Below are positions 2,552 through 61,242 of a stretch of 64,000 nucleotides of DNA, in pieces; positions within the stretch are counted from its first letter, which is position 1; every line of letters starts with the position of its first letter. The stretch is taken from assembly GCA_964016885.1 (NCBI GenBank), contig OZ024745.1, positions 85,622,001 to 85,686,000 on the forward strand. The letters run 5' to 3'. Origin of the DNA: Eledone cirrhosa (lineage: Eukaryota). Made by a program: the position numbers and the translations under genes. The notes beneath the pieces are model-generated. The model was not told where the DNA came from. It searched no databases and worked only from the letters and a program-made list of their open reading frames with translations.

Positions 2552-2600
2552 GTATAAAAAGAAAACACAGCTAAGCATTAAGAGAAGGATTTTATCCATG

Positions 2601-2702
2601 TATTTACGACCGTTTCATTGGTAAGTGCAACCTTATATTGCTATACTGCAAATAGCAGCCACTCAATTATAATTGTTGTTCACAGTCCAAATTTTCAAAA
2701 TA
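2601..2702 (-). ncRNA. Type I HHR, U3-A8 variant (antisense arm copy)
   Basis: Reverse complement of 5564-5665. Confidence 0.6.
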
Positions 2703-3273
2703 GCATGTTACTCTTGAAGTAATTCTTAATATATAGAGAAAAACATTTTTTTGGAATTGTATTTACTATTATATAGAGAGAGAGAAATCAGAAGGTGAGG
2801 GGACAAACGGAATAGTATAGAGAGAGGGGAAGGGGGAGAGGTAGGAAGTAGAGCGACAAACTGAGATGGAGGGAGGGGTAGAGGTGGAAGGATTCCTTGG
2901 TCAGTTTTGATAGCAGACTTCATGTCGTGGAATGTAGTGAGTTAAAGAGAATTAAATTGATCATAGTGGGAGGGATGGATAGAGAGGGAGAGAGAGAGAG
3001 GGGGAGATATAAAGAGATAAATATATATATATATATAAAATAAAGATAAAGATAATAATGACAAAAATAAAAGCAAAGAAGGGGGTGAGAAAGAAGAAAA
3101 GAAAATCTAGCCAAGAAGAGGAGGGAAGGAAGGAAGAAAACGAAGAAATAGAAGAGGAATGAGGGAGAAGAGGGGGATATATGTATTGGTTTTGTGGGTA
3201 ATTAAAAGGGTTTAGATACAACAAGAGGATATAAAGTCTAAGTATATGCAGTTTGTCACTTGGTAGTAAGAGG

Positions 3274-4768
3274 TTAAGGGTTCGATTTGTAGTGCGAAAT
3301 CTTCTCTTTGAGTCTATGGTTACAATAAATTGATCTTTCGATTTTATTGTTGAGTAACTTATTCTTCGAACTCAAGATGTGGAACAGCTCAAGGTCGCAT
3401 AATCGACAGGTTCTCATACCACTCCGATATGGAGGCGCGTTCGATATTTTTTTCCACTTAAGGGTGTATTGATGGTTACTTTCCCTCAGTTGCCAGGTCT
3501 TGTTTGCAAGGGTAGTTACATAACGATGCCGGGAATGTTTCATTGCGTAACGGTGTGTATACCAACGGGCTTTAAATGCATTCCCAGTCGCTCCGATGTT
3601 ATACCATTTCTGGTTTTATGATTCCACTGTGCATTGGTAAACCAGGTTAGACTGCATACATTCGTTATGTAATGGACAGGTTTCAGGTAGGTGGCAGTTA
3701 CAGTTCTTGTCATGGGCAACTTTGGCATTATTGGTGGGCTGCGATGCCTGTACAAGTGTGTTACGTTTTGTTTGCCTATGTGCGGGTAGTTGTGTATTAG
3801 ATATTCTGTTGTTTTCGGTGGTGATTGTATTGTTATTGTTGTAAATTTGTGTTTTGGTGTTGTTATGTATCTTTTTAGCGTTAAGCATCTTAATGTGTGC
3901 CTCTATATTTGGTGCCGTGGAGTAAGATAGTCTAATAGATTTGGTGTTAAGGATTTTGTTGTATCTATGTGAATCTGGAAAGTGCTTATTTATTATTCTA
4001 AAGAAGGTAGAGGGTAGGTTAATACTAATAGAGGTGTTAAATATGGGGTTATACCAAATATATTTTCTACTGCGTGACTTGTTTTATTTCGATGTTGTAT
4101 TTCTATTTGCCGCATACTTTGTAGTTCTATGCGTAAGTGCTTGTGTGCGTGTGTTACCGGAGTTTGTGTTATGCGTGTTCGTGTGCGCTTCACGGAGGCT
4201 TTCATCTATATAATCTACTCTATCTAAGTAGCCTGCCTTGTCTAATGCGGTATTGCAGTATTCTGCATGTTCTTCGAAGATTTGTAGGTTAGACGAGAGG
4301 CGGGAGATCCTAAGGGATATGTTGCGTGGAATGGATTTAATTATGGATAGTGGGTGGTTTGAGTTACAGTTGATGTATGCTAAGTTTTCATTAATCTTGT
4401 GAAAAGGTATCATAAGTCCCGTATTTAGGTTAAGCGTCGCGTCTAGAAAGTTAACGGTTTTAGTGCTATACTCATACGTTATGCTAATGCCTAGTTTCCC
4501 GAGAGTCTTTCTAATATTCTTACGGAGTCTTTCTATGCTCTGGTTATTTAGGTTCTTAACTAGGAGAAGGGCGTCGTCTCTGTAGATTCCACCGTGAAGG
4601 TCGCTAAACTCACTTTGTAAACTATGGGCTATGTAAATACCTACTAAATCTATGACTTGAGCCGAGTCGTTAGCCCCCATCGTGATGTCAAAGTTATTTA
4701 ATCTATCCTTACGTTCCCAATAGGCGTTTTCAAATGTAATTATTGTTTTCCTAGCAGCTAATATGATA
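3274..4768 (-). pseudogene. Frameshifted PLE reverse transcriptase + GIY-YIG endonuclease
   Basis: MGANDSAQVIDLVG, GIYRDD, NFLD, SNHP; linker CNC..CPL..C; C-terminal CRLC..E..LLN..E..C.H. Confidence 0.9.
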
Positions 4769-5563
4769 GCAACTGAGGGAAAGTAACCATCAATACACCC
4801 TGAAGTGGAAAAAATATCGAACGCGCCCCCATATCGGAGTGGTATGAGAACCTGTCGAATATGCGACCTTGAGCTGTTCCACATCTTGAGTTCGAAGAAT
4901 AAGTTACTCAACAATAAAATCGAAAGATTAATTTATTGTAACCATAGACTCAAAGAGAAGTTTCGCACTACAAATCGAACCCTTAACCTCTTACTACCAA
5001 GTGACAAACTGCATATACTTAGACTTTATATCCTCTTGTTGTATCTAAACCCTTTTAATTACCCACAAAACCAATACATATATCTCCCTCTTCTCCCTCA
5101 TTCCTCTTCTATTTCTTCGTTTTCTTCCTTCCTTCCCTCCCCTTCTTGGCTATCTTTTCTTTTCTTCTTTCTCACCCCCTTCTTTGCTTTTATTTTTGTC
5201 ATTATTATCTTTATCTTTATTTTATATATATATATATATATATTTATCTCTTTATATCTCCCCCCTCTCTCTCTCTCCCTCTCTATCCATCCCTCCCACT
5301 ATGATCAATTTAATTCTCTTTAACTCCCTACATTCCACGACATGAAGTCTAATATCAAAACTGACCAAGGAATCCCTCCACCTCTACCCCTCCCTCCATC
5401 TCAGTTTGTCGCTCTACTTCCTACCTCTTCCCTCTTCCTCTCTCTCTATACTATTCCGTTTGTCCCCTCACCTTCTGATTCCTCTCTCTCTATATACTAG
5501 TAAATACAATTCCAAAAAAATGTTTTTCTCTATATATTAAGAATTACTTCAAGAGTAACTTGC

Positions 5564-5665
5564 TATTTTGAAAATTTGGACTGTGAACAACAATTATAAT
5601 TGAGTGGCTGCTATTTGCAATATAGCGATATAAGGTTGCACTTACCAATGAAACGGTCGTAAATA
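5564..5665 (+). ncRNA. Type I HHR, U3-A8 variant, extended stem II
   Basis: tatt-TTGAAAA-tttgg...ccaat-GAAA-CGGTCG-TA-aata. Confidence 0.62.
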
Positions 5666-5838
5666 CCTGGATAAAATCCTTCTCTTAATGCTTACCTGTG
5701 TTTTCTCTTTTATACTTTATACTCCAAGAACGGAATTCTTACAAACTTGTGGAGTCACCCCTAACCGTACGTTGAAACCATCCACGAAACTGGCTTTCTT
5801 AACCAAGAACTGGATCACAATAAGCAATTTTTTTTTCT

Positions 5839-5883
<45 letters not shown>

Positions 5884-11093: not shown

Positions 11094-11948
11094 TATATTA
11101 TATATATATATTATATATATATATATATAATATATAAATATATATATATTATATATTATATATATATATATATATAATCTATTATATATTATATATATAT
11201 ATATTATATATATATATTATATATTATATATAATATATATATATATAATATATATATATATTATATATATATATATTATATATTATACATAATATATATA
11301 TATATAATATATATATATATTATATATATATATATAATATATATATTTATTATATATATATATATTATATATATATATTATATATATATATATATTATAT
11401 ATATATTATATATATATATATATTATATATATATAATATATATTATAGAATTCACAGGTATCAAAATTATTTTCAAACCATTTATTAGCTCACAATTGTT
11501 TCATCCAACACTCCTTCCAAAACTTTAAACCCAATATATAGCAATGTCAGGCTTGAACCCATCACCACTTCTAGCAACACACCTCAAGGGGCCACCTTAC
11601 ACCACAACTCCACACTCAATGATCCACCCTATCTTAACACAATTCGTGCCATATATCTAAAACCTTTTACCCTACAAATGCCCCCATATACACCTACTTT
11701 TAATATAATTACTTTCAATTACTTAGACTGTACTATATCACTATATAATTATATGTAAACTTTAAACACCGAATTCAGCAATGAATTATTTGTGCAAATG
11801 TTGTTGTATGTATGGAGTGCTATCATTCGATAAATAGAGGATTAATTTATTAACGTAAAAGAGCTGTATAACCTATATGTTGAGTACAATGAATTATGTA
11901 CAAGTGGTATGTCAGTTATACATACATGTATAACTTGATAGATAGATT

Positions 11949-12137
11949 AATTGTTTCTACTTTAGGCACAAGGCCAGCAATTACCCAGTGCATTACTGGT
12001 ACTTTATTTTATCGACCCCGTAAGGATGAAAGGCAAAGTCAACCTCGGCGGGATTTGAACTCAGATCGTAAAGGGACGTAACTATGTTGAAAAGCATGGC
12101 TTCCGACCCTCTACTGATACTGCCAATCCACCGCCTT
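11949..12137 (-). mobile_element. tRNA-derived SINE with target-site duplication
   Basis: A-box-like TGGCAGTATCAG and B box GAGTTCAAATCC on the minus strand; Meta-domain-like GTTGACTTTGCCTTTCATCC; TSD TTGATAGATAGATTAAT at 11935 and 12136. Confidence 0.85.
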
Positions 12138-13534: not shown

Positions 13535-13607
<73 letters not shown>

Positions 13608-13617
13608 AACCAGTAAG

Positions 13618-13711
13618 ACCCCGACAGCTGAGCTCAAGCCGTTTCGACGGCTAATTCTGGACTAAATGAAAATTTATCCTGGTATTTAAATAGCCGATCT
13701 TCTCAAGGGGT
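13618..13711 (-). ncRNA. HHR, U3-A8 variant (antisense arm copy)
   Basis: Reverse complement of 15722-15815. Confidence 0.75.
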
Positions 13712-15721
13712 AATTCCATATATGGTCAAAGTGATTGTCAAAAATCAGTAGTAATTCTGTGGTTGCAAATTAGTAGGGGAGATGGTGGCTAAACCTGCCA
13801 GTAGGAGAAAGAGGGGGTGGAGTAGACCCAATCAAGCGTTTGTAGTGCCAGCTACAGCTGGGCATGAGGTCAAAGAAGATACAGGGGAGGGGGAGGGGGA
13901 AGAAGTCGGAACGGTAGGTAGAACAGTGGGGGGTAGAAATATATAGGAAAGAAAAAATACTGAGAGTGAAGAAAAGCAAATAAGTGTAAAGAAAAACAAA
14001 TGAGTGTAAAGAAAAAAGTAAAGTAAATTAAATTCTACGACCTAGGTCTCTAGCTATTGTTAGGCTAGAATAAATAAATAAATAAAGAAAGAAAGAAGTA
14101 AAGAAAGAAATAAAGAAATAACGAAATAAGTAAAAGAACTAGGTGGGACGGATTAGGCGAGGACCCTTTTAAGAGGTATAAGTACGTAAATGATACGGTG
14201 ACTGGTCAACAAAAGAGGCCAAAATACTAAAGAGACTACTACGAAATAAACAATAAAGGTTTCCATCCCGGGCACAATTCCAGCAACCACCCAGTGCAGC
14301 AAAGTGAACTAATACGAGATAATAATTCTGAGTCCCGAGAAAAATATATACTAATGCTAACTCTAAAAGATCTAAAACAATCTACATGAAAGTTCGTACG
14401 AAGTAAAGGTAGAATACGGAAAAATAAATTCAGAATCCACCCCGCCCAAAAGAAAAGCGAAGAAAGAAATACTGAAACGAAAAAATAAGGCATAAGTGCC
14501 ACTAAGAAATATAGAGGGCACAGAGAATAGTGGGAGCGGTCGGAAAAAGGGGACAAGTATCCGGGGTCTAAACCAACTGCTATAAAGGGCGGAGTCCGCC
14601 AAATCTATCCTAGACTAGGGGAGGGGGTGGGGGTACTAAGGCTACAAGGGGCCAAAGATCTTCTTTGTATTCTTTTATCGCTTCCTTTATTTCCTTCCTT
14701 CCCCCCTCTCTCCTTAGTCCTTCTACCCCAGCTCTTCTCCTTTGTCGGCGTCTTTTCTCGCCCACCCGAGGCTGCCCTTTGGCCCCTTGTAGCCTTAGTA
14801 CCCCCACCCCCTCCCCTAGTCTAGGATAGATTTGGCGGACTCCGCCCTTTATAGCAGTTGGTTTAGACCCCGGATACTTGTCCCCTTTTTCCGACCGCTC
14901 CCACTATTCTCTGTGCCCTCTATATTTCTTAGTGGCACTTATGCCTTATTTTTTCGTTTCAGTATTTCTTTCTTCGCTTTTCTTTTGGGCGGGGTGGATT
15001 CTGAATTTATTTTTCCGTATTCTACCTTTACTTCGTACGAACTTTCATGTAGATTGTTTTAGATCTTTTAGAGTTAGCATTAGTATATATTTTTCTCGGG
15101 ACTCAGAATTATTATCTCGTATTAGTTCACTTTGCTGCACTGGGTGGTTGCTGGAATTGTGCCCGGGATGGAAACCTTTATTGTTTATTTCGTGGTAGTC
15201 TCTTTAGTATTTTGGCCCCTTTTGTTGACCCGTCACCGTATCATTTACGTACTTATACCTCTTAAAAGGGTCCTCGCCTAATCCGTCCCACCTAGTTCTT
15301 TTACTTATTTCGTTATTTCTTTATTTCTTTCTTTACTTCTTTCTTTCTTTATTAATTTATTTATTCTAGCCTAACAATAGCTAGAGACCTAGGTCGTAGA
15401 ATTTAATTTACTTTACTTTTTTCTTTACCTCATTTGTTTTTCTTTACACTTATTTGCTTTTCTTCACTCTCAGTATTTTTTCTTTCCTATATATTTCTAC
15501 CCCCCATTGTTCTAACTACCGTTCCGACTTCCTCCCCCTCCCCCTCCCCTGTATCTTCTTTGACCTCATGCCCAGCTGTAGCTGGCACTACAAACGCTTG
15601 ATTGGGTCTACTCCACCCCCTCTTTCTCCTACTGGCAGGTTTAGCCACCATCTCCCCTACTAATTTGCAACCACAGAATTACTACTGATTTTTGACAATC
15701 ACTTTGACCATATATGGAATT

Positions 15722-15815
15722 ACCCCTTGAGAAGATCGGCTATTTAAATACCAAGATAAATTTTCATTTAGTCCAGAATTAGCCGTCGAAACGGCTTGAG
15801 CTCAGCTGTCGGGGT
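15722..15815 (+). ncRNA. Type I HHR, U3-A8 variant
   Basis: acccc-TTGAGAA-gatcggcta...tagccgtc-GAAA-cggct tgagctc agctg-TC-ggggt; GUC cleavage triplet. Confidence 0.8.
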
Positions 15816-15906
15816 CTTACTGGTTCCTATTACCCACTCTACTACCTCAAGTATTGAGTACTTTGGTGCGTTATGGTCCACCTGGTTCCTAACCACATTT
15901 CCTTCG

Positions 15907-16469: not shown

Positions 16470-16975
16470 AAAGAATAGAGGTGTAACACACAAGTTATTA
16501 TATATTGGTAAACGGAATAGAAAATGCTGACAAATTGTTCACAGTTGAAAATGGTTTAATTAGGAATAAAAGAGTATTAGTGATTGTATGGGTTAGTATT
16601 CAGTTGTGGTTTTAAGTTTTTAAGTTTTTACCGGTTGCGCATTTCTAAATACTTTTCAAAAATAATTTTGAGATAGAGTGTACGTGCTGTTTGCTCTGAT
16701 CTGATTAGTTTTGGGAATTCTACCTGTTTTTATGTTAAAAAAGTGGCTCCAGCGTTATTTTTGTGTTGCAAAAATTCTTGTGGTCAAAACAATTTTGATT
16801 GGTCGGTAGAGGTCATGTGAATGTAAAAAGTTGATTTTGCGCCAAGACTGTTTTTATGTTAAAAAAGTGGCTCCAGCAAAAATCTTGGTCAAAACAATTT
16901 TGATTGGTCGGTAGAGGTCATGTGAATAAAAAATTGGTTTTGCGCCAAGATTGAGAAATGACTCTTTCACAACAA

Positions 16976-17075
<100 letters not shown>

Positions 17076-17153
17076 TAGTAGTAGTAGTAAGGTGTTCGAT
17101 GCTGCGACAATGGCCAGCAGCGATGTGTGTCAAATGGCTATTAAGATAAGTGT

Positions 17154-17588
17154 GTGTGTGCCACAACAACGAAACCCACAGTAAAAAAATGCGATAGATC
17201 CAACTGTGGCATTTGCATCAACCTAATAGAGGGTTCGGAATTCTATTTCAAAGATGGACAACGTTTTATAGTAAAACACAATTTCACATGTGCATCGGAA
17301 AATCTAATATATGTATTAACTTGTTCAGGTTGTCCAGAACAATACATAGGCCAGACCAAAAACAACCTCCGCCAACGCATGACTGTCCATAGATCCCAAA
17401 TTAAAATACGAGAATACAGGAAAATACCACTGAGTGAACACATTGATACCTGTGCCGCCCCAAATCATCCCAACTTCAGAATCTTTCCCCTCTACAAATT
17501 TAAAGATAATGCCACCCACACCCAGCGCATCAGCAAGGAATCTTACTTCATTAACAAATACGGACCCCGTCTAAACACTTCTCCCTAA
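17154..17588 (+). CDS. PLE GIY-YIG endonuclease domain with upstream Cys motif (Neptune-like), 5'-truncated
   Basis: KKCDRSNCGIC...FTCASENLIYVLTCSGCPEQYIGQTKNNLRQRMTVH...ESYFINKYGPRLN; open frame. Confidence 0.85.
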   Translation: MCATTTKPTVKKCDRSNCGICINLIEGSEFYFKDGQRFIVKHNFTCASENLIYVLTCSGCPEQYIGQTKNNLRQRMTVHRSQIKIREYRKIPLSEHIDTCAAPNHPNFRIFPLYKFKDNATHTQRISKESYFINKYGPRLNTSP

Positions 17589-17731
17589 GACGAACACACA
17601 CACAACATACACACGTCAACATACATACCTACATCAGCACACATCTCTACCCACATATAAACACAATTACACACGTAAACACACATTTTCTATGGTGCAA
17701 TACAGGGAAATATATGTGCATATATATGTAT

Positions 17732-17775
<44 letters not shown>

Positions 17776-17984
17776 AATATATGTATGTGTATATATATAT
17801 AGTGGATATCATTTCACAATTTTATTGTTAAAATGTTTGATGTTCTATTAAGAGAACCGATTTTACTGAAAAAATCGAATAATGTACACCATTTTACCAG
17901 GGGGGAAAAATACTGGTCCCCCCCCACACATATATATATATACACAAACACATACACACGCGTACATCAACATACAAAGAGACT

Positions 17985-18023
<39 letters not shown>

Positions 18024-18205
18024 ATCTTTTGACATGTTAAAATACCCCCCATTGCTTTCAGACACATTCTTACTGACCATCCCTACCACCACGAATCACT
18101 CTGCTATACACACACACACACACACTCACACACACACTTATCTTAATAGCCATTTGACACACATCGCTGCTGGCCATTGTCGCAGCATCGAACACCTTAC
18201 TACTA

Positions 18206-18263
<58 letters not shown>

Positions 18264-18575
18264 TTGTTGTGAAAGAGTCATTTCTCAATCTTGGCGCAAA
18301 ACCAATTTTTTATTCACATGACCTCTACCGACCAATCAAAATTGTTTTGACCAAGAATTTTTGCTGGAGCCACTTTTTTAACATAAAAACAGTCTTGGCG
18401 CAAAATCAACTTTTTACATTCACATGACCTCTACCGACCAATCAAAATTGTTTTGACCACAAGAATTTTTGCAACACAAAGATAACGCTGGAGCCACTTT
18501 TTTAACATAAAAACAGGTAGAATTCCCAAAACTAATCAGATCAGAGCAAACAGCACGAACACTCTATCTCAAAAT

Positions 18576-18615
18576 TATTTTTGAAAAGCATTTAGAAATG
18601 CGCAACCGGTAAAAA
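18576..18615 (+). ncRNA. HHR-like motif, U3-A8 plus A13C (probably inactive)
   Basis: ttt-TTGAAAA-gcattt ag aaatgc-GCAA-CCGG-TA-aaa; mirror copy at ~16625-16664. Confidence 0.5.
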
Positions 18616-18765
18616 CTTAAAAACTTAAAACCACAACTGAATACTAGCCCATACAATCACTAATACTCTTTTATTCCTAATTAAACCATTTTTCAACTGT
18701 GAACAATTTGTCAGCATTTTCTATTCCGTTTACCAATATATATATATATATATATATCATATATA

Positions 18766-22505: not shown

Positions 22506-22557
<52 letters not shown>

Positions 22558-22991
22558 TACATACAGGTACACATACATATACGCACGCATCAGTTTAGCG
22601 GACGCTTATTATAACGCCGCTTTGTTCGTTTGTAAACAAACTGAACAGCCTGAATTTATGCCATACGGTGTTAAGGCAACCACGTCCCCTTTTTGTTCAA
22701 CACTGACACAGGAACGATGTACTAGTTTCAAGCTTGTTAGCTATCATCAGCACCGTATACCCATCTGCCAGATAGTTGAACGTTCGAAAGTATATACTTT
22801 CCTTATGAAAATTAACGGCTGAGCAGCCTAATTTGCATATTGAGTGAGTTAAATCGGTCAGGCATATCGAAAACGATAAGTTGAAAAAAATGAAAACGAA
22901 ATTTCATTTCTCACTCTTAGTATGGCACTTACTTAAATGTAAGTATGTATGTATACGTACATACATATATGTATACAGACGTACAGTAGCA

Positions 22992-23085
<94 letters not shown>

Positions 23086-23644
23086 TATATACATACAGGT
23101 ACACATACATATATGCACGCATCAGTTTAGCGGACGCTTATTATAACGCCGCTTTGTTCGTTTGTAAACAAACTGAACAGCCTGAATTTATGCCATATGG
23201 TGTTAAGGCAACCACGTCACCTTTTTGTTCAACACTGACACAGGAACGATGTACTAGTTTCAAGCTTGTTAGCTATCATCAGCACCGTATACCCATCTGC
23301 CAGATAGTTGAACGTTCGAAAGTATATACTTTCCTTATGAAAATTAACGGCTGAGCAGCCTAATTTGCATATTGAGTGAGTTAAATCGGTCAGGCATACC
23401 GAAGACGATAAGTTGAAAAAAAATGAAAACGTTGCCTTAACACCGTATGGCATAAATTCAGGCTGTTCAGTTTGTTTACAAGCGGCGTTATAATAAGCGT
23501 CCGCTAAAAAATGAAATGGTTGCCTTAACACCGTATGGAATAAATTCAGGCTGTTCAGTTTGTTTACAAACGAACAAAGCGGCGTTATAATAAGCGTCCG
23601 CTAAACTGATGCGTGCATATATGTATGTGTACCTGTATGTATAA

Positions 23645-23727
<83 letters not shown>

Positions 23728-23839
23728 TGCTACTGTACGTCTGTATACATATATGTATGTACGTATACATACATACTTACGTTTAAGTAAGTGCCATACT
23801 AAGAGTGAGAAATGAAATTTCGTTTTCATTTTTTTTCAA

Positions 23840-23840
<1 letters not shown>
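22450..23840 (-). mobile_element. Second retrozyme-like array (subfamily of 120-2360) with inverted end
   Basis: HHRs at 22714-22756 and 23246-23288 (minus; CTGATGA..GAAA-CTAG-TA), 532 bp apart; internal (TA)n; inverted part 23430-23840. Confidence 0.8.
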
Positions 23841-27129: not shown

Positions 27130-27318
27130 AAGGCGGTGGATTGGCAGTATCGGTAGAGGGTCGGACGCCATGCTTTCCCGCATAGTTACGTCCCTTTACG
27201 ATCTGAGTTCAAATCCCGCCGAGGTTGACTTTGCCTTTCATCCTTACGGGGTCGATAAAATATAGTACCAGTAATACACTGGGTAATTGCTGGACTTGTG
27301 CCTAACGTAGAAACAATT
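27130..27318 (+). mobile_element. tRNA-derived SINE
   Basis: Same family as 11949-12137; A and B boxes. Confidence 0.85.
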
Positions 27319-30770: not shown

Positions 30771-31398
30771 AAATGAAAGTATAGAAATTATTGTGAGCGT
30801 GAAGCCAACAGTATTTCATAATATATATAACATCGAAATGGAAAATAATTAACGTAAGATGTGGGAAAATAATTCAAGCTCAATTAAAAAAATCAAGACA
30901 GATTTATCCATAGAATTTTGTGAAATCCAGGGAATTTATATAATATATAATATTTATATATTATATAATATATATATATATATATTACATATATATATAT
31001 TATATATATATATATATTATATATTTATATATATATATTATATATATATATATATTACATATATGGATATATATTATATATATATATATATGTTATATAT
31101 ATATATATATTATATATATATATATTATATATATATATATATATTATATATATATATATTATATATAAATATATTATATATATATATATATTAAATATAT
31201 ATATATTATATATATATATATATATTATATATATATATGGAGGAAGTTATAGTTCACTTGAAGCATTGTGTAATGAGGTATAAACGTTTGTATATGTATA
31301 CTAAAGCCAAAACAATGCAGGTATAGACATAGAATAAAGAAAGCAAATGCATAAATATTGTTGACAATTAGTCTTTTACCTTAGATTTATTTAAATGT

Positions 31399-31433
31399 CC
31401 TTAATTTTCGAGATAATATCTCTTCTTCGGAGG
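31399..31433 (-). ncRNA. Ultra-minimal HHR-like motif (U4C)
   Basis: cct-CCGAAGA-agagat att atctc-GAA-AATT-A-agg; plus-arm copy 34441-34475 has G12A. Confidence 0.5.
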
Positions 31434-31807
31434 GAAGTAAAGCGGTTAAACCAGTATTCTAAATAGCTTGCCAAGTCATACTGACAGGAAATGGTATAGA
31501 GTATCTGTTCTATCTCTAATGTCAAAGAGTTAAGGTTAGGTGGATAAAGAGTAGTCTCCCTTTAAAAGGGTTTTTTGTACATGCCTGTTTAAGTGTGTGG
31601 TAGAATGTGTGAGGTGTAAGTATGTGTGTGTGTGTGCGTGTGTGTATGTGAGTGTGAGAAGATATGTCTATACGTAAATGTGGGGGATATATGTAATCTC
31701 GTGTTAGAACTGGTCTTTGTGTGTGTATGTGTGTGTGAGAGAGAGAATAAGTGGAGGTGTAAGCGTGTGTGTGGGAGGGCGGTGTAAATATGGGGCTAGA
31801 TGCTATA

Positions 31808-33900
31808 TCAAGTTATAAATTGGGTGTTGAGTTCTAGTCTATTATTGATTGGTGGTTGTGTTTTGTCTATAATTAGTGCTTCCTTAATTCTAAGATTGCC
31901 GAGGTTTCTTTCCTTAATTTCTATCCTAACTGTTATGGTTTTGTCAGTGTTTTTACATTTAACTAGGTGTTTTTTAAATGAGGAAGCGTTAGTATTGAGG
32001 TGTTCTTTTATTCTTATGTGGAGTGGCCTGGTGGTGCTACCTAAGTAGAGTTTGCTGCATTTGTTGCACTCTAGTCTGTATACGACGTAAGCCTGGTGGC
32101 ATATGTCTGTGTCGTTGATGGGGTAGTTGGCTAGCCTGCAGCGGTTGTCATGTCTGGTGGAGTGTCTTTTGGTTAGCTGTCCGCGTAGAGAAGGACCTGA
32201 GTGGGCCAGTTGGATATCTAGTCCCTCTCGTCTGATAGCTCTGCGGATGGCTGTTGTTGTTTCGTCACTGAAGTGTGGGAGCTTCAGGAAGCAAGTGTTA
32301 GTGCCTCTGGTGTGATGTCCTCTGTTCTTTCTGGCACGGTTTGAGGTGGATGTCGTGTATCCGTTCAGTTTGAGTACTTCCAGGAAATGTGTGGTGTGTG
32401 TGTCTCGGTCTCTAGCGTCGGTGCATTTGTTCCGGATACGTGTTAGTTCGTTCCTTATGTATCCGAACTTAGCGCTGGCTGGGAGGGCCGATCTGAAATG
32501 TACGAACAGGTCCCTGCTGGCGGCTTTTTTATAGAAGCAAGTGTGGATGTTGCCATCCTCTGTTACCATGAGTTGGAAGTCCAGTAGGGATAGGGATCCG
32601 CGGTCATCGGGGTGTTCCATGCTGATCTTTATACTGGCGTCCATGCTGGAGAATGTTGTGTATATTTTATCCGCCTCCTCACGGGATGATGTAAGGATGA
32701 ATATGTCATGTACATATCGGATGAAGAAGGCATGGGAATGGCAGGTGTTGACGGCTCGGCCATCTTAGCTGGTTCATATAGGTGATGGCCAGCAGGCCCG
32801 ATAGGCTGGATCCATGGGTAATCCTGTTGTCTGTCTGTATGTGGTGGTGGAAGGTGAAGTACGTGTTGTCCACTGTGAAGGCCAAAAGCTGGTGTATGTC
32901 CGTCGGAAGGAGGCCGTAGCAGTGGATGATCTCTGCGACCACACAGTCCGTCAATAAATCGACAGCTGGATGAGTGGGGACTGTAGTGTAGAGGGAGACA
33001 ACGTCGAGCCTAAAGGCGTATCTATTTAGTTTAAGTTGTTCTGTCTGGAGTTGGTGTAGTCTACTTATGACTTCGTCGGAACTACTGACGTGCCCGGGAA
33101 AGGTGGAGAGTAGAGGCTTGAGGACCTGGTAGAGGAGCCAGGAAATTCTGTATAGGGGTCCTTCTATGCTAGAGACGATGGCTCTTATTTGTGTCTTAGT
33201 ACTATTCTTGTGGGTCTTGATGAGGTGGTAGAAAGTGGGCAGTCTGCTATTTATAGTGGTGTAGTTGAGCTTAACTTTATTTGGGAGTTGAATTCTCTTA
33301 CAGCTATCGAACCAGATGGAGTTGGTCTGTTTTTCGATCTGGGCTGCAGTCATGTCCGGGATCTCTGTATATAGTTCATTGTCGCTTAGGTGTTCAAAGG
33401 CTAGGTTGTTGTATGTGGCTTGAGAGATGACGCAAAACTCTTTACCTTTGTCGGATGGTAAGTATATATGTTCCCTATTCCGTAGGTTCTTCAGGGCGTG
33501 TTGTTGTGTCCTGGAGAGGTTTGGGGCTATCTTCTGTTTCCGTAAGATGTTAAATACGGAATGTTTTAGCCTCTAGAGTTTTTCTTCAAGCTTGCGGTGG
33601 ACAGAGTGGGCGATTCAGTTGGTATATCGGGAATCTGGGTTTGTTAGGTTCCGTGGTGTTGTTGCCGAGAGACGATATCCATTTTAGTTGGTAGGCAGCC
33701 CGACAGAAATTCGTTTCTATGTCGAGCCATAATTTGTCGTCCAGTCTCTGTTTCAATATGAACTTGGGACCCAGGCTGGGGAGATCTAATTCCTCTCGGG
33801 AGAGGGATCCTGTCAAGTCTGTGACGAGGTGTTTTGCGTCAGGAGTGTTGTTCAGTGTTGGTACCGTCTTGTTCGCCTCTGTTGGTGCTAAGAGTTGGGA
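31808..33900 (-). pseudogene. Frameshifted PLE RT + GIY-YIG
   Basis: LGPKF, SDKG, FYHLIKTHK, LDVVSLYTTVP, RYVHDIF (YVDD mutated), VYRLECNKC..YLGSTTRPLHIRIKEH, EALII..PPIN. Confidence 0.92.
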
Positions 33901-34914
33901 TGTTGTTAAGGCAGTTAGCCGTTAGTTAATTGCAAAAACGCCGACAAAACCATAACAGTTAGGATAGAAACTAAGGAAAGAAATCTCGGCAATCTTAGAA
34001 TTAAGAAAGCACTAATTATAGACAAAACACAACCACCAATCAATAATAGACTAGAAGTCAACACCCAATTTATAACATGATATATCATCAAGCCCCATAT
34101 TTACCCCCCCCCCCACACACACACGCTTACACCTCCACTTATTCTCTCTCACACACACACATACACACACAAAGACCAGTTCTAACACGAGATAACATCT
34201 ATCCCCCACATTTACGTATAGACATATCTTCTCGCACTCACACAAACACACATACTTACACCGCTCACATTCTCCCTCACACTTAAACAGGCATGTACAA
34301 AAACCCTTTTGAAGGGAGAATACTCTTTATCCAGCTAACCTTAACTCTTTGACATTAGAGATAGAACAGTTACGCTATACCATTTCCTGTCAGCATGACT
34401 TGGCAAGCTATTTAGAACACTAGTTTAAACGCTTTACTTCCCTCCGAAGAAGATATATTATCTCAAAAATTAAGGACATTTAAGTAAATCTAAGGTAAAA
34501 GACTAATTGTCAACAATATCTTTTGCATTTGCATTCTTTATTCTATGTCCATACCTGCATTGTTTTGGCTTTAGTGTACATATAGAAACGTTTATATATA
34601 TATATATATTATATATATATATATAAATATTATATATATATATATATTATATATATATATATTATATATATATATTATATATATATATATATATATATTA
34701 TGTATATATATATATTATATATATATATATTATATATATATATATATTATATATATATATATATTATATATATTATATATATATATTATATATATTAGAT
34801 ATATATATTATATATATTATATATAAATATTATATATATATATATGTTATATATATATTATATATATTATATATATATTATATATATTATATATATATAT
34901 TTATATATATATAT

Positions 34915-35164: not shown

Positions 35165-35292
35165 TCCCTTTACGATCTGAGTTCAAATCCCGCCGAGGTT
35201 GACTTTGCCTTTCATCCTTACGGGGTCGATAAAATAAAGTACCAGTAATGCACTGGGTAATTGCTGGCCTTGTGCCTAAAGTAGAAACAATT
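35165..35292 (+). mobile_element. 5'-truncated SINE
   Basis: B box plus Meta-like body. Confidence 0.8.
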
Positions 35293-37650: not shown

Positions 37651-37711
<61 letters not shown>

Positions 37712-37715
<4 letters not shown>

Positions 37716-38685
37716 GAAACACACAGATACATGCGGACACACACATATATACATGAATTCATCCGCACCCAACTATGAGTTAAGGGTGCCAACTTCACCG
37801 ATGTTGCTCAATGAATGACTGGGACAGACCTATCCAGTTGAACTAGACTGAACCAGTATCAGAGTTAAAAATACATTATGAAGAGAGAAGAAACATTTAG
37901 ATATAATTAGTAATAAAATGTATCATACCTAAACTGCTTCTAAATTCCTCGAGTACGTAGTTTCGTGGCATAAACAAAAACAATATATCATAAAGATATA
38001 GAGTACTTGCGAGGTCTGCCGACTTATCAAGAGGATACCTCATTTTACTAGTCTCAAGAACGCGTCTACACGACGTGAGAAAGAATCCCAAAAGGCGGAG
38101 GGGGAGATAGTCACGTGATATAACGGTCGAGAAACAGAGCTAAGCCTCTTATAACCCCGAAGAAAATACCACGGAGGCGGAGGGGGTATTTATATCGAGG
38201 CCGTAGAAGAGGTGGTGTAGGAGGCGAGAAGTATGAGTAATGGAAGCTTTCCAGCTGTCCTCACTCTTCAAAGATTGCTCGACCAGAGGGAGTTATTAAC
38301 AATATATTTAGAAACACACAGATACATGCGGACACACACATATATACATGAATTCATCCGCACCCAACTGTGAGTTAAGGGTGCCAACTTCTGTGGTATT
38401 TTCTTCGGGGTTATAAGAGGCTTAGCTCTGTTTCTCGACCGTTATATCGCGTGACTATCTCCCCCTCCGCCTTCTGGGATTCTTTCTCACGTCGTGTAGA
38501 CGCGTTCTTGGGACTAGTAAAATGAGGTATCCTCTTGATAAGTCGGCAGACCTCGCAAGTACTCTATATCTTTATGATATATTGTTTTTGTTTATGCCAC
38601 GAAACTACGTAGTCGAGGAATTTAGAAGCAGTTTAGGTATGATACATTTTGTTACTAATTATATCTAAATGTTTCTTCTCTCTTC

Positions 38686-38690
<5 letters not shown>
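37712..38690. mobile_element. Fold-back non-coding element (family M)
   Basis: Arms 37876-38172 and 38392-38690; direct repeat 37712-37795 / 38306-38390. Confidence 0.8.
38530..38619 (+). ncRNA. Type I HHR, U3-A8 variant
   Basis: tcctc-TTGATAA-gtcggca...tgccac-GAAA-CTACGTAG-TC-gagga; mirror copy 37946-38035. Confidence 0.8.
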
Positions 38691-38727
<37 letters not shown>

Positions 38728-38946: not shown

Positions 38947-39341
38947 ATATTATATATATATATTTATATTATATATATATATATTATATATATATATTTA
39001 TATTATATATATATATATTATATATATATATATTATATATATATATATATTATATGTATATATATATTATATATATATATATTATATATATATATATATT
39101 ATATATATATATATATTATATATATATATATTTATATTATATATATATATATTATATATATATATTTATATTATATATATATATATTATATATATATATA
39201 TATATTATATATATATATATATATTTTATATATATATATATTTTATATATATATATTATATATAAATATTATATATATATATTATATATATATATAATAT
39301 ATATATATATATATTATATATATATATATTATATATACATT

Positions 39342-39528
39342 GTGGTGGATTGGCAGTATTGATAGAGGGTCGGACGCCATGATTTCCAGCATAGTTACGT
39401 CCCTTTATGATCTGAGTTCAAATCCCGCCGAGGTTGACTTTGCCTTTCATCTTTACGGGGTCGATAAAATAAAGTACCAGTAATGCACTGGGTAATTGCT
39501 GGCCTTGTGCCTAAAGTGGAAACAATTA
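39342..39528 (+). mobile_element. tRNA-derived SINE
   Basis: A and B boxes, same family. Confidence 0.85.
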
Positions 39529-39786: not shown

Positions 39787-40117
39787 AATGAAGTAATTCC
39801 GTCGGAAAAGTCCAGGAAAAAGGAGTGCTCTATGTAGGTAACAGAGCTTAATAGTTATGTAATAAACAACATAAAGCAATTATTCCATTTACCAGTGGTT
39901 TCTTATAAGCAATAAATTTTGCTTTCAATCCTCAGAATGAAAAAATCCTGGTCTGTTTATTGAATTTGGATTTTAAAAATCTAATTGGTTTTTAAAATCC
40001 AAATTCAATAAACAGACCAGGATTTTTTCATTCTGAGGATTGAAAGCAAAATCTTTTCCTTTTAAGAAACCACTGGTAAATGGAATAATTGCCTTATGTT
40101 GTTTATTACATGACTAT
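39787..40117. mobile_element. 330-bp hairpin element with two inverted family C HHRs
   Basis: Arms 39852-39980 and 39987-40117; HHR 39883-39942 (-) and 40026-40085 (+), core CTGAGGA. Confidence 0.85.
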
Positions 40118-40714: not shown

Positions 40715-40842
40715 TCCCTTTACGATCTGAGTTCAAATCCCGCCGAGTTTGACTTTGCCTTTCATCCTTACGGTGTCGATAGGATAAAGTATCAGTAATG
40801 CACTGGGTAATTGCTGGCCTTGTGCCTAAAGTAGAAACAATT
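40715..40842 (+). mobile_element. 5'-truncated SINE
   Basis: Same truncation point as 35165. Confidence 0.8.
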
Positions 40843-41395: not shown

Positions 41396-42068
41396 TATAT
41401 ATATATATATTATATATCTATCTATATATATATATATTATATATATATATATATTATATATATATATATATTATATATATATATATATATCATATATATA
41501 TATATATATTATATATATATATATCACATATATATATATCATATGTATATATATATTTTATAAATATATATATATTATATATATATATTATTTATATATA
41601 TATTATATATATATATATCATATGTATATATATATTATATATATATATATATAATATATATATATATTATATATATATACTATATATATATATATTTATA
41701 TTATATATATATATATTATATATATATATTATATATATATATAATATATATATATATTATATATATATATATTATATATATATATATTATATATATATAT
41801 ATATTATATATATATATATCATATTTATATATATATTATATATATATATATATATTATATATATATATATAATATATATGTATATTATATATATATATAT
41901 ATTTATATTATATATATATATATTATATATATATATCATATATATACATATTTTATATATATATATATTTTATATATATATATTATATATAAATATTATA
42001 GTTATATATTATATATATATATAATATATATATATATTTATATTAATATATATATCTTATATATATAT
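40843..42068. repeat. Imperfect (TA)n microsatellite, ~1.2 kb
   Basis: Direct reading. Confidence 0.95.
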
Positions 42069-42255
42069 TGTGGTGGATTGGCAGTATTGGTAGAGGGTCG
42101 GACACCATGCTTTCCAGCATAGTTACCTCCCTTTATGATCTGAGTTCAAATCCCGCCGAGGTTGACTTTGCCTTTCATCCTTACGGGGTCGATAAAATAA
42201 AGTACCAATAATGCACTGGTGAATTGCTGGCCTTGCGCCTAAAGTAGAAACAATT
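42069..42255 (+). mobile_element. tRNA-derived SINE
   Basis: A and B boxes. Confidence 0.85.
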
Positions 42256-45862: not shown

Positions 45863-46049
45863 CGGCAGTGGATTGGCAATATCGGTAGAGGGTCGGACGC
45901 CATGCTTTCCAGCATAGTTACGTCCCTTTACGATCTGAGTTCAAATCCCGCCGGGTTGATTTGACTTTCATCCTTACGGGGTCGATAAAATAAAAAGTAC
46001 CAGTAATGCACTGGGTAATTGGTGGCCTTGTGCTAAATTAGAAACAATT
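45863..46049 (+). mobile_element. tRNA-derived SINE
   Basis: A and B boxes. Confidence 0.85.
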
Positions 46050-58096: not shown

Positions 58097-58262
58097 AACG
58101 AAGGAAATGTGGTAAGGAACCAGGTGGACCCTAACGCACCAAAGTACTCAATACTTAGGGTAGTAGAGTGGGTAATAGGAACAAGTAAGACCCCGACGGC
58201 TGAGTACAGAATTAGCCGTCGAAACGGCTTGAGCTCAGCCGTCGGGGTCTTACTTGTTCCTA
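58097..58262. mobile_element. 165-bp fold-back remnant of family F
   Basis: Tail of 15800-15908 in reverse, joined to the sense 15775-15829 segment. Confidence 0.85.
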
Positions 58263-61104: not shown

Positions 61105-61242
61105 TGTCAACCTCGGTGGGATTTGAGCTGAGTTCAAATCCCACCGATGTTGACTTTGCCATTCATCCTTACGGCGTCGACAAAATAAAGTACCATTGAT
61201 GCAATGGGTAATTGCTGACCTTGTGCCTAAAGTAGAAACAAT

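Follow-up and report, generated by a model that had tools for sequence, protein, structure and literature searches.

The window analysed here, a 64-kb stretch of the 3.0-Gb genome of Eledone cirrhosa, is a mosaic of (TA)n tracts, long inverted repeats and many broken reverse transcriptase (RT) and GIY-YIG frames, and the host genome looks rich in Penelope-like elements (PLEs). A relaxed motif scan of the window yielded four hammerhead motifs with a U3-A8 core (UUGANAA) along with about a dozen canonical CUGANGA motifs. The four cores, assigned to families A to D, occur in both arms of each element exactly where the sequence-only reading had placed them, and the coordinates of all eight copies proved exact. 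The type I motif of family A lies at 15722..15815 (+), with its core at 15727-15733, the GAAA at 15788 and a predicted cut after C 15810, and its inverted-arm copy is found at 13618..13711 (-; core 13706). Family B is represented by a type I motif at 38530..38619 (+; core 38535, palindromic stem III, predicted cut after C 38614) and an inverted-arm copy at 37946..38035 (-; core 38030) in which G16.2 is changed to C. For A and B, the previously proposed C17 positions (15810 and 38614) were confirmed. The type I motif of family C spans 5564..5665 (+; core 5568, predicted cut after A 5661), with the other-arm copy at 2601..2702 (-; core 2698), and a hammerhead-like motif of family D is located at 18578..18614 (+; core 18581, GCAA with C at position 13 at 18602, palindromic stem III), with its inverted-arm copy at 16626..16662 (-; core 16659). 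Positions 3 and 8 form a U-A Watson-Crick pair in 8/8 window copies; as the two arms of one element stem from a single insertion, they do not count as independent evidence. The TTGANAA 7-mer itself occurs 52 times in the window, both strands taken together, so that only the whole motif is informative.

Membership was judged by the type I hammerhead consensus given in the passages of Perreault et al. (2011; PMC3088659). The expected core (U4, G5, A6, N7 and A9; G12, A13 and A14; A15.1-U16.1; H17; three stems) is present in A, B and C. The A and B motifs share a G10.1-C11.1 pair, a 5-bp stem I and a GUC site, and the A motif additionally has a 5-bp stem III, with stems I, II and III all present in its centroid fold. 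In the C motif, which passed the relaxed scan only and lies outside the scored census described below, U-U is found at the base of stem II and stem I consists of 4 A-U bp. The D motif carries GCAA instead of GAAA and a stem I of 3 bp. It passes if GCAA is allowed and is filed as hammerhead-like because it lacks A13, which is present in a sister family, D'. Minimum-energy folding did not separate the four motifs from shuffled sequences (z = 0.0, -1.06, 0.33 and -0.18), and the same was true of two canonical controls (-1.40 and 0.77); the C and D motifs, when folded alone, gave no hammerhead fold. An Rfam scan of the window returned 136 matches at E up to 1, among them no hammerhead family and only AT-repeat noise, and it also overlooked the canonical CUGANGA motifs of the same window. 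These canonical type I motifs are found in other PLE-type families at 2112 (+), 10792 (+), 19023 (-), 22750 (-), 23282 (-), 26737 (-) and 36071 (-), with further ones at 39935 (-), 40033 (+), 45219 (+), 47309 (-), 55656 (-) and 56444 (+).

The motifs of families A, C and D lie within PLE insertions. The family A element is a 5'-truncated insertion of a Hydra-clade PLE in (TA)n at 13606..15906 (+; inverted arm 13606-14657, sense arm 14777-15906), and it comprises the 3' untranslated part only, as translation of the sense arm gave no RT or endonuclease frame. A relative at locus L150 has a 719-aa RT-endonuclease frame. At 58099-58260, a short stub of family A was noticed that includes a small inverted part and breaks off before the 5' core; in run X2, the final 130 nt of A are covered about ten times as deeply as the core, so that A stubs and related families are common. 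The family C element, likewise of the Hydra clade, occupies 2552..5843 (-), with arms at 2552-3493 and 4769-5715 according to self-BLAST, and retains broken minus-strand frames for the RT (4084-4932) and the endonuclease (3616-4083 and onward); the full frame is found in a relative at locus L304. While no Pfam match was obtained for either the A or the C protein, inspection by eye of L150 and L304 revealed the marks of the Hydra clade, namely DKT, RWK (RWR in A), a CxCX5C linker and a C-terminal endonuclease that has CxxC and CxH around its end and no CCHH. The corresponding insertion marks were found as well: a (TA)n target, an inverted truncated arm, a one-arm tail and a hammerhead in the repeat. 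An assignment of A and C to Nematis-type elements was dropped in favour of the Hydra clade, whose description by Craig et al. (2021; PMC8557442) they match more closely. According to the sections of that study on the Hydra clade, its elements share with A and C the protein motifs, the (TA)n targets, the inverted truncated arms and the one-arm tail, and the U-U at the base of stem II seen in C is common in the published hammerhead table. In contrast, 26/26 Hydra rows of that table read CUGANGA where A and C have UUGANAA, and Hydra-clade units are generally under 3 kb, compared with 3.1-3.6 kb for the A and C units.

The third coding family, D, is inserted at 16499..18742 (+; arms 16499-16978 and 18261-18742 by self-BLAST) and holds a GIY-YIG endonuclease frame at 17145-17588 (+; Pfam PF01541, E 4e-8). 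At loci L311 and L312, family D copies have 784-aa RT-endonuclease frames with RVT_1 and GIY-YIG above the Pfam cut-off. A 455-aa frame with no Pfam match lies upstream of, and overlaps, the RT frame (L306:3907-5271 (-) and L307:954-2318 (+)). With RT followed by GIY-YIG, a CX2-5CxxC linker and CCHH, family D is what we take to be a Neptune-clade element, a name given by motif and not by a tree. As described for Neptune-clade PLEs in the relevant parts of Craig et al. (2021; PMC8557442), where the CX2-5CxxC-type linker is common to Neptune and Nematis PLEs, D has the RT before the GIY-YIG domain, DKG, a CX4CxxC linker and the endonuclease residues C, C, H and H; unlike them, it has the upstream 455-aa frame and a hammerhead with U3-A8 and C13. 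The four families had been regarded as unrelated. This has to be qualified for A and C, whose proteins are 40% identical and fall into one PLE clade (Hydra).

In all families, the motifs lie a short way upstream of the element 3' end, and each family typically shows two end points. These are located past the cut site by about 20 and 100 nt in A, 50-60 and 175 nt in C, and 131 and 167 nt in D, in agreement with the tail described for PLEs in the available passages of the same paper (PMC8557442). The motifs recur in tandem at a spacing of 3.1-3.6 kb in A, 3.2-3.4 kb in C (in two loci), 4.8 kb in D and about 591 nt in B. The window also contains a PLE of another type at 31239-34590; its arms are inverted, its RT and GIY-YIG frames are broken, and the motif scan gave no hammerhead in it. 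In addition, a 120-185 nt interspersed repeat, SINE-like by size, is present in eight copies (11948-12135, 27132-27314, 35166-35292, 39339-39528, 40716-40838, 42067-42251, 45864-46045 and 61124-61239).

Genome-wide, the families were counted by exact patterns in which positions 3, 7 and 8 were left open; both arms were counted, and reversed-pattern controls gave 0-1 matches. On this basis, the families comprise 5,768 (A), 6,338 (B), 1,130 (C), 6,246 (D) and 11,000 (D') matches. The A matches divide into 4,220 U3-A8, 1,500 C3·A8, 39 U3·G8 and 9 C3-G8, A8 thus being present in 5,720 and G8 in 48, while all four bases occur at position 7, as expected of a free position. Among the 100 matches listed per family, U3-A8 was found in 99 for B, 100 for C, 98 for D and 100 for D', and C3-G8 in none of these four families. 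In the sister family D' (L201:2649 (-), L219:3600 (+)), the U3-A8 hammerhead is compact, its stems measure 4 bp and GAAA is in place; both GAAA and the 4-bp stem I recur in 100/100 matches listed of its 11,000, whereas GCAA (C13) occurs in 99/100 matches listed of the 6,246 for D. Two more U3-A8 motifs with GUC sites were seen in other families (L107:2334 (+) and L027:285 (+)). The alternative that the U3-A8 cores arose from CUGANGA by mutational decay after insertion would draw on the AT-rich genome and on the fact that both changes are transitions. If so, CUGANGA should be the family consensus, but C3-G8 accounts for just 9 of the 5,768 A matches and for none of the 100 listed for B, C, D or D', and near-identical young copies are all U3-A8. 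The decay explanation is therefore already refuted by the family counts: U3-A8 is a family-wide state, and it is so in all four families.

In a census with positions 3, 7 and 8 free, covering 864 kb (the window, its neighbours and spaced stretches), 76 matches were obtained versus 1 in the reversed sequence, comprising 56 C3-G8, 15 U3-A8 and 5 other states. A looser descriptor applied to 90 evenly spaced stretches (900 kb) gave 50 matches versus 2 reversed, of which 34 were C-G, 11 U-A, 1 C·A and 4 other. These figures bear on a second alternative, by which the motifs would be chance matches in a low-complexity, palindrome-rich genome, as the 52 TTGANAA occurrences in the window and the weak stems of C and D might suggest. 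Against it stand the 76 matches versus 1 reversed control, the fixed place of the motifs near the PLE 3' end, the alignment of C with canonical-core motifs, and the GAAA and 4-bp stem I of D's sister D' in 100/100 matches listed. Chance is hence refuted for A and B and very unlikely for C and D. The prediction that CUGANGA searches would miss such motifs was borne out insofar as the 11 U-A motifs of the 50 sampled escape that descriptor; with Rfam, the canonical motifs were missed as well.

Grouping by sequence gave 40 clusters, 26 of which are mainly C-G, 6 mainly U-A and none mainly C·A or U·G, with 8 singletons of other kinds, some of which are likely false matches. Among the 17 clusters found in two or more loci, 13 are C-G and 4 U-A (Fisher p 4e-4). 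Such statistics overstate independence, since there is relatedness among the clusters, D and D' overlap in part and U3-A8 queries served to fetch some of the loci. Positions 3 and 8 therefore covary across families as anticipated, C-G and U-A dominating both the census and the clusters; within A they do not, with 1,500 C3·A8 and 9 C3-G8 among 5,768 matches. A tree of 15 proteins, drawn from this genome only, with broken proteins read with X and several links to motifs resting on one locus, requires three changes of the U3-A8 label, at least two of them forced by well-supported branches, and a clade uniting A with C is rejected (p-AU 4e-63). The number of protein-linked families is limited by the genome sample of about 1 Mb of unselected DNA, and the link of the L200 protein to cluster c4, which was kept in the tree, conflicts with two other loci, probably owing to a nested insertion. 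On the same tree the U3-A8 label is no more clustered than in shuffles. The C motif and its flanks can be aligned with four families of C3-G8 type (one with T at position 8) at 60% mean column identity. As all 26 published Hydra rows, in the table referred to above, read CUGANGA (PMC8557442), C-G to U-A is the likely direction, and it is likely that such switches occurred at least twice, probably three times.

How strictly the cleavage core is maintained can be judged from families A and D. Of 101 A copies, 54 entered a tree (47 with short upstream overlap were left out), in which the 12 C3 copies form one clade (99/92) nested within U3-A8 copies, with midpoint rooting and one C3 sub-type absent from the sample. 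In an independent run, C accounts for about 27% of the depth at 15727, and no change is listed at A8. The C3·A8 copies include long ones with protein frames, and their 1,500 of 5,768 matches mean that an unpaired core was amplified to a quarter of family A. G is found at position 7 in 95/100 of the C3·A8 matches listed; a shifted register in which C3 pairs with G at position 7 was considered, and descent explains G7 equally well. Near-identical copies of family D, in turn, keep their 784-aa frames despite C13 and a 3-bp stem I, and comparison of D with D' by eye reveals paired changes in stems I and II. A search of the literature outside subscription journals for A13C hammerheads found nothing relevant. 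Further PLE core variants such as C13 may, reportedly, already be described by Lunse et al. in 2017.

These observations leave room for an alternative that we consider unlikely, though well above the two discussed so far, namely that the motifs are relics: selected in ancestors, with U3-A8 fixed long ago, cutting now dispensable and the cores riding along with master copies. It gains from the amplification of C3·A8 in A, long framed copies and the share of about 27% of depth in the independent run included, from D, which was amplified to 6,246 matches while carrying C13 and a 3-bp stem I, and from Naiad PLEs, which spread without canonical hammerheads according to passages in Craig et al. (2021; PMC8557442). 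It is weakened by the absence of any mismatched 3/8 state as cluster majority (0/40), by the U3-A8 state of the youngest-looking open-frame A copies and by the paired stem I and II changes between D and D'. Of the four families, D is best explained in this way, and A and B least. Selection for ribozyme function, which had been proposed from the window, is thus supported by the covariation across families, but not by A, which lacks it within the family, nor by D, in which A13 was changed while the family spread. Cutting is likely under loose selection, which holds over long times while defective masters still amplify.

The reading we favour, at a probability of roughly 80%, is that all four are type I hammerhead motifs in PLE 3' repeats with a family-wide U3-A8 pair, which likely cut tandem transcripts to a unit-length insertion template. 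A tandem element transcript would self-cleave at the predicted hammerhead sites to give unit-length RNA, which, possibly circularised, would then be reverse transcribed at the target to yield a new insertion. These steps follow the published PLE model of self-cleavage to unit length, possible circularisation and reverse transcription at the target, as outlined in passages of Cervera and De la Pena (2014; PMC4209133). In tandem copies, two motifs are found at a distance of one unit, which fits the cutting of tandem transcripts. With its 5-bp stem III the A motif could act as a monomer, while B, C and D, with a short or palindromic stem III, would need two copies. In the literature, activity in vitro is stated for ribozymes with U3-A8 (PMC3088659), and metazoan PLE hammerheads are reported to cut poorly in vitro even as dimers (PMC4209133).

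The U3-A8 swap cannot be regarded as new, being already in print. Natural U3-A8 covariation in several hammerheads was described by Perreault et al. (2011; PMC3088659), the same 3-8 swap, with no tie to PLEs in the passages concerned, whereas it is PLE-borne here. In PLEs, Cervera and De la Pena (2014; PMC4209133) reported U3-A8 minimal hammerheads from Cercyon PLEs of Schistosoma mansoni with about 1,300 matches; in the present genome, the exact patterns gave roughly 29,000 over five families with both arms counted. From the relevant sections of that paper, the Cercyon motifs resemble those of the window in being type I, in PLE terminal repeats, with U3-A8, a short stem I, a palindromic stem III, a long stem II with a bulge near its base and opposite-strand motif pairs a few hundred bases apart. 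They differ in that Hydra- and Neptune-type proteins, a 5-bp stem III (A), a C3·A8 sublineage and a C13 family are found here. For octopus and Penelope elements, a search of the literature outside subscription journals found nothing on such hammerheads.

Family B stands apart from the coding elements. Its insertion at 37707..38694 (+), with both ends in (TA)n, is made of non-coding tandem units of 591 nt and consists of an inverted arm (37707-38391) ending at unit position 245 and a sense arm (38390-38694) ending at unit position 80. The unit measures 591 nt in 16/29 units (578-607 nt overall), has a GC content of 42%, carries one type I hammerhead and, when folded as a circle, reaches -173 kcal/mol compared with -132.8 +/- 7.7 for 30 shuffles. 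Non-coding tandem units, a single type I hammerhead, GC under 45% and a self-paired circle are features of retrozymes and are all seen in B; since its 591-nt unit lies outside the range of 150-450 nt, B is called retrozyme-like. Like the metazoan non-LTR retrozymes described in passages of Cervera and De la Pena (2020; PMC7229834), B consists of dispersed tandem units that do not code for protein and are strongly self-paired as a circle, while it differs from them in unit size (591 versus 150-450 nt), U3-A8, PLE-style inverted arms and (TA)n ends. A subfamily about 81% identical to the main unit (L173, L174) keeps the U3-A8 core pattern. The window holds a further array of units of about 428 nt at 123-2356, the first part inverted, with a small canonical hammerhead at 2112 and related copies at 22552-23840; it is possibly a second retrozyme-like family.

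A survey of B covered 36 distinct insertions, drawn from 30 loci that match the window copy best, a further 15 loci taken first by position and 3 chosen loci. An inverted arm is present in 18/36, and in 17/18 of these the arms end at unit positions of about 80 and 245, nearly always in (TA)n. The 5' ends, in contrast to these fixed ends, are scattered; the longest arm measures 2,907 nt, and up to five near-identical units occur. Units of the same array differ from one another at 0-2 sites (L313), 0 (L169) and 6 (L314), compared with 5-25 sites between arrays (12 of 29 units compared). B insertions thus have two fixed starting points at internal TA-like sites, which lie 80 and about 245 nt beyond the cut site, and because copying from unit position 80 crosses the cut site, the template must have been circular or an uncut multimer. 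A sense PLE protein match lies upstream of only 2/86 B copies, no protein-coding partner was found among the loci examined, no tRNA gene was found in B, and among the sequencing runs no RNA run is listed as carrying it. As judged from these genomic copies, B looks like a retrozyme bearing PLE insertion marks, and it may equally be named a non-autonomous PLE. A bolder reading, to which we give somewhat less than even weight, is that B might be a retrozyme-like circular RNA copied in rolling-circle fashion by a PLE enzyme, and that alongside it C-G to U-A switches would have recurred and a natural C3·A8 intermediate been amplified to 1,500 copies.

The U3-A8 swap is real, well supported and known in kind, and adds little by itself. 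Worth keeping are the sublineage with C3·A8, the family with C13 and the insertion pattern seen in B. About a fifth of this genome's hammerheads (11/50 sampled) escape the CUGANGA descriptor, and the natural series of cores (U-A, C·A, C-G and C13), with its copy numbers, makes it testable whether the hammerhead is required by PLEs. It has been proposed that PLEs move animal retrozymes, though the discussion concerned offers no direct evidence for this. Family B provides a concrete candidate for the question of whether PLE enzymes move retrozymes via circular templates and, if the bolder reading holds true, would supply direct evidence at the genome level that PLEs mobilise animal retrozymes, as has been proposed.
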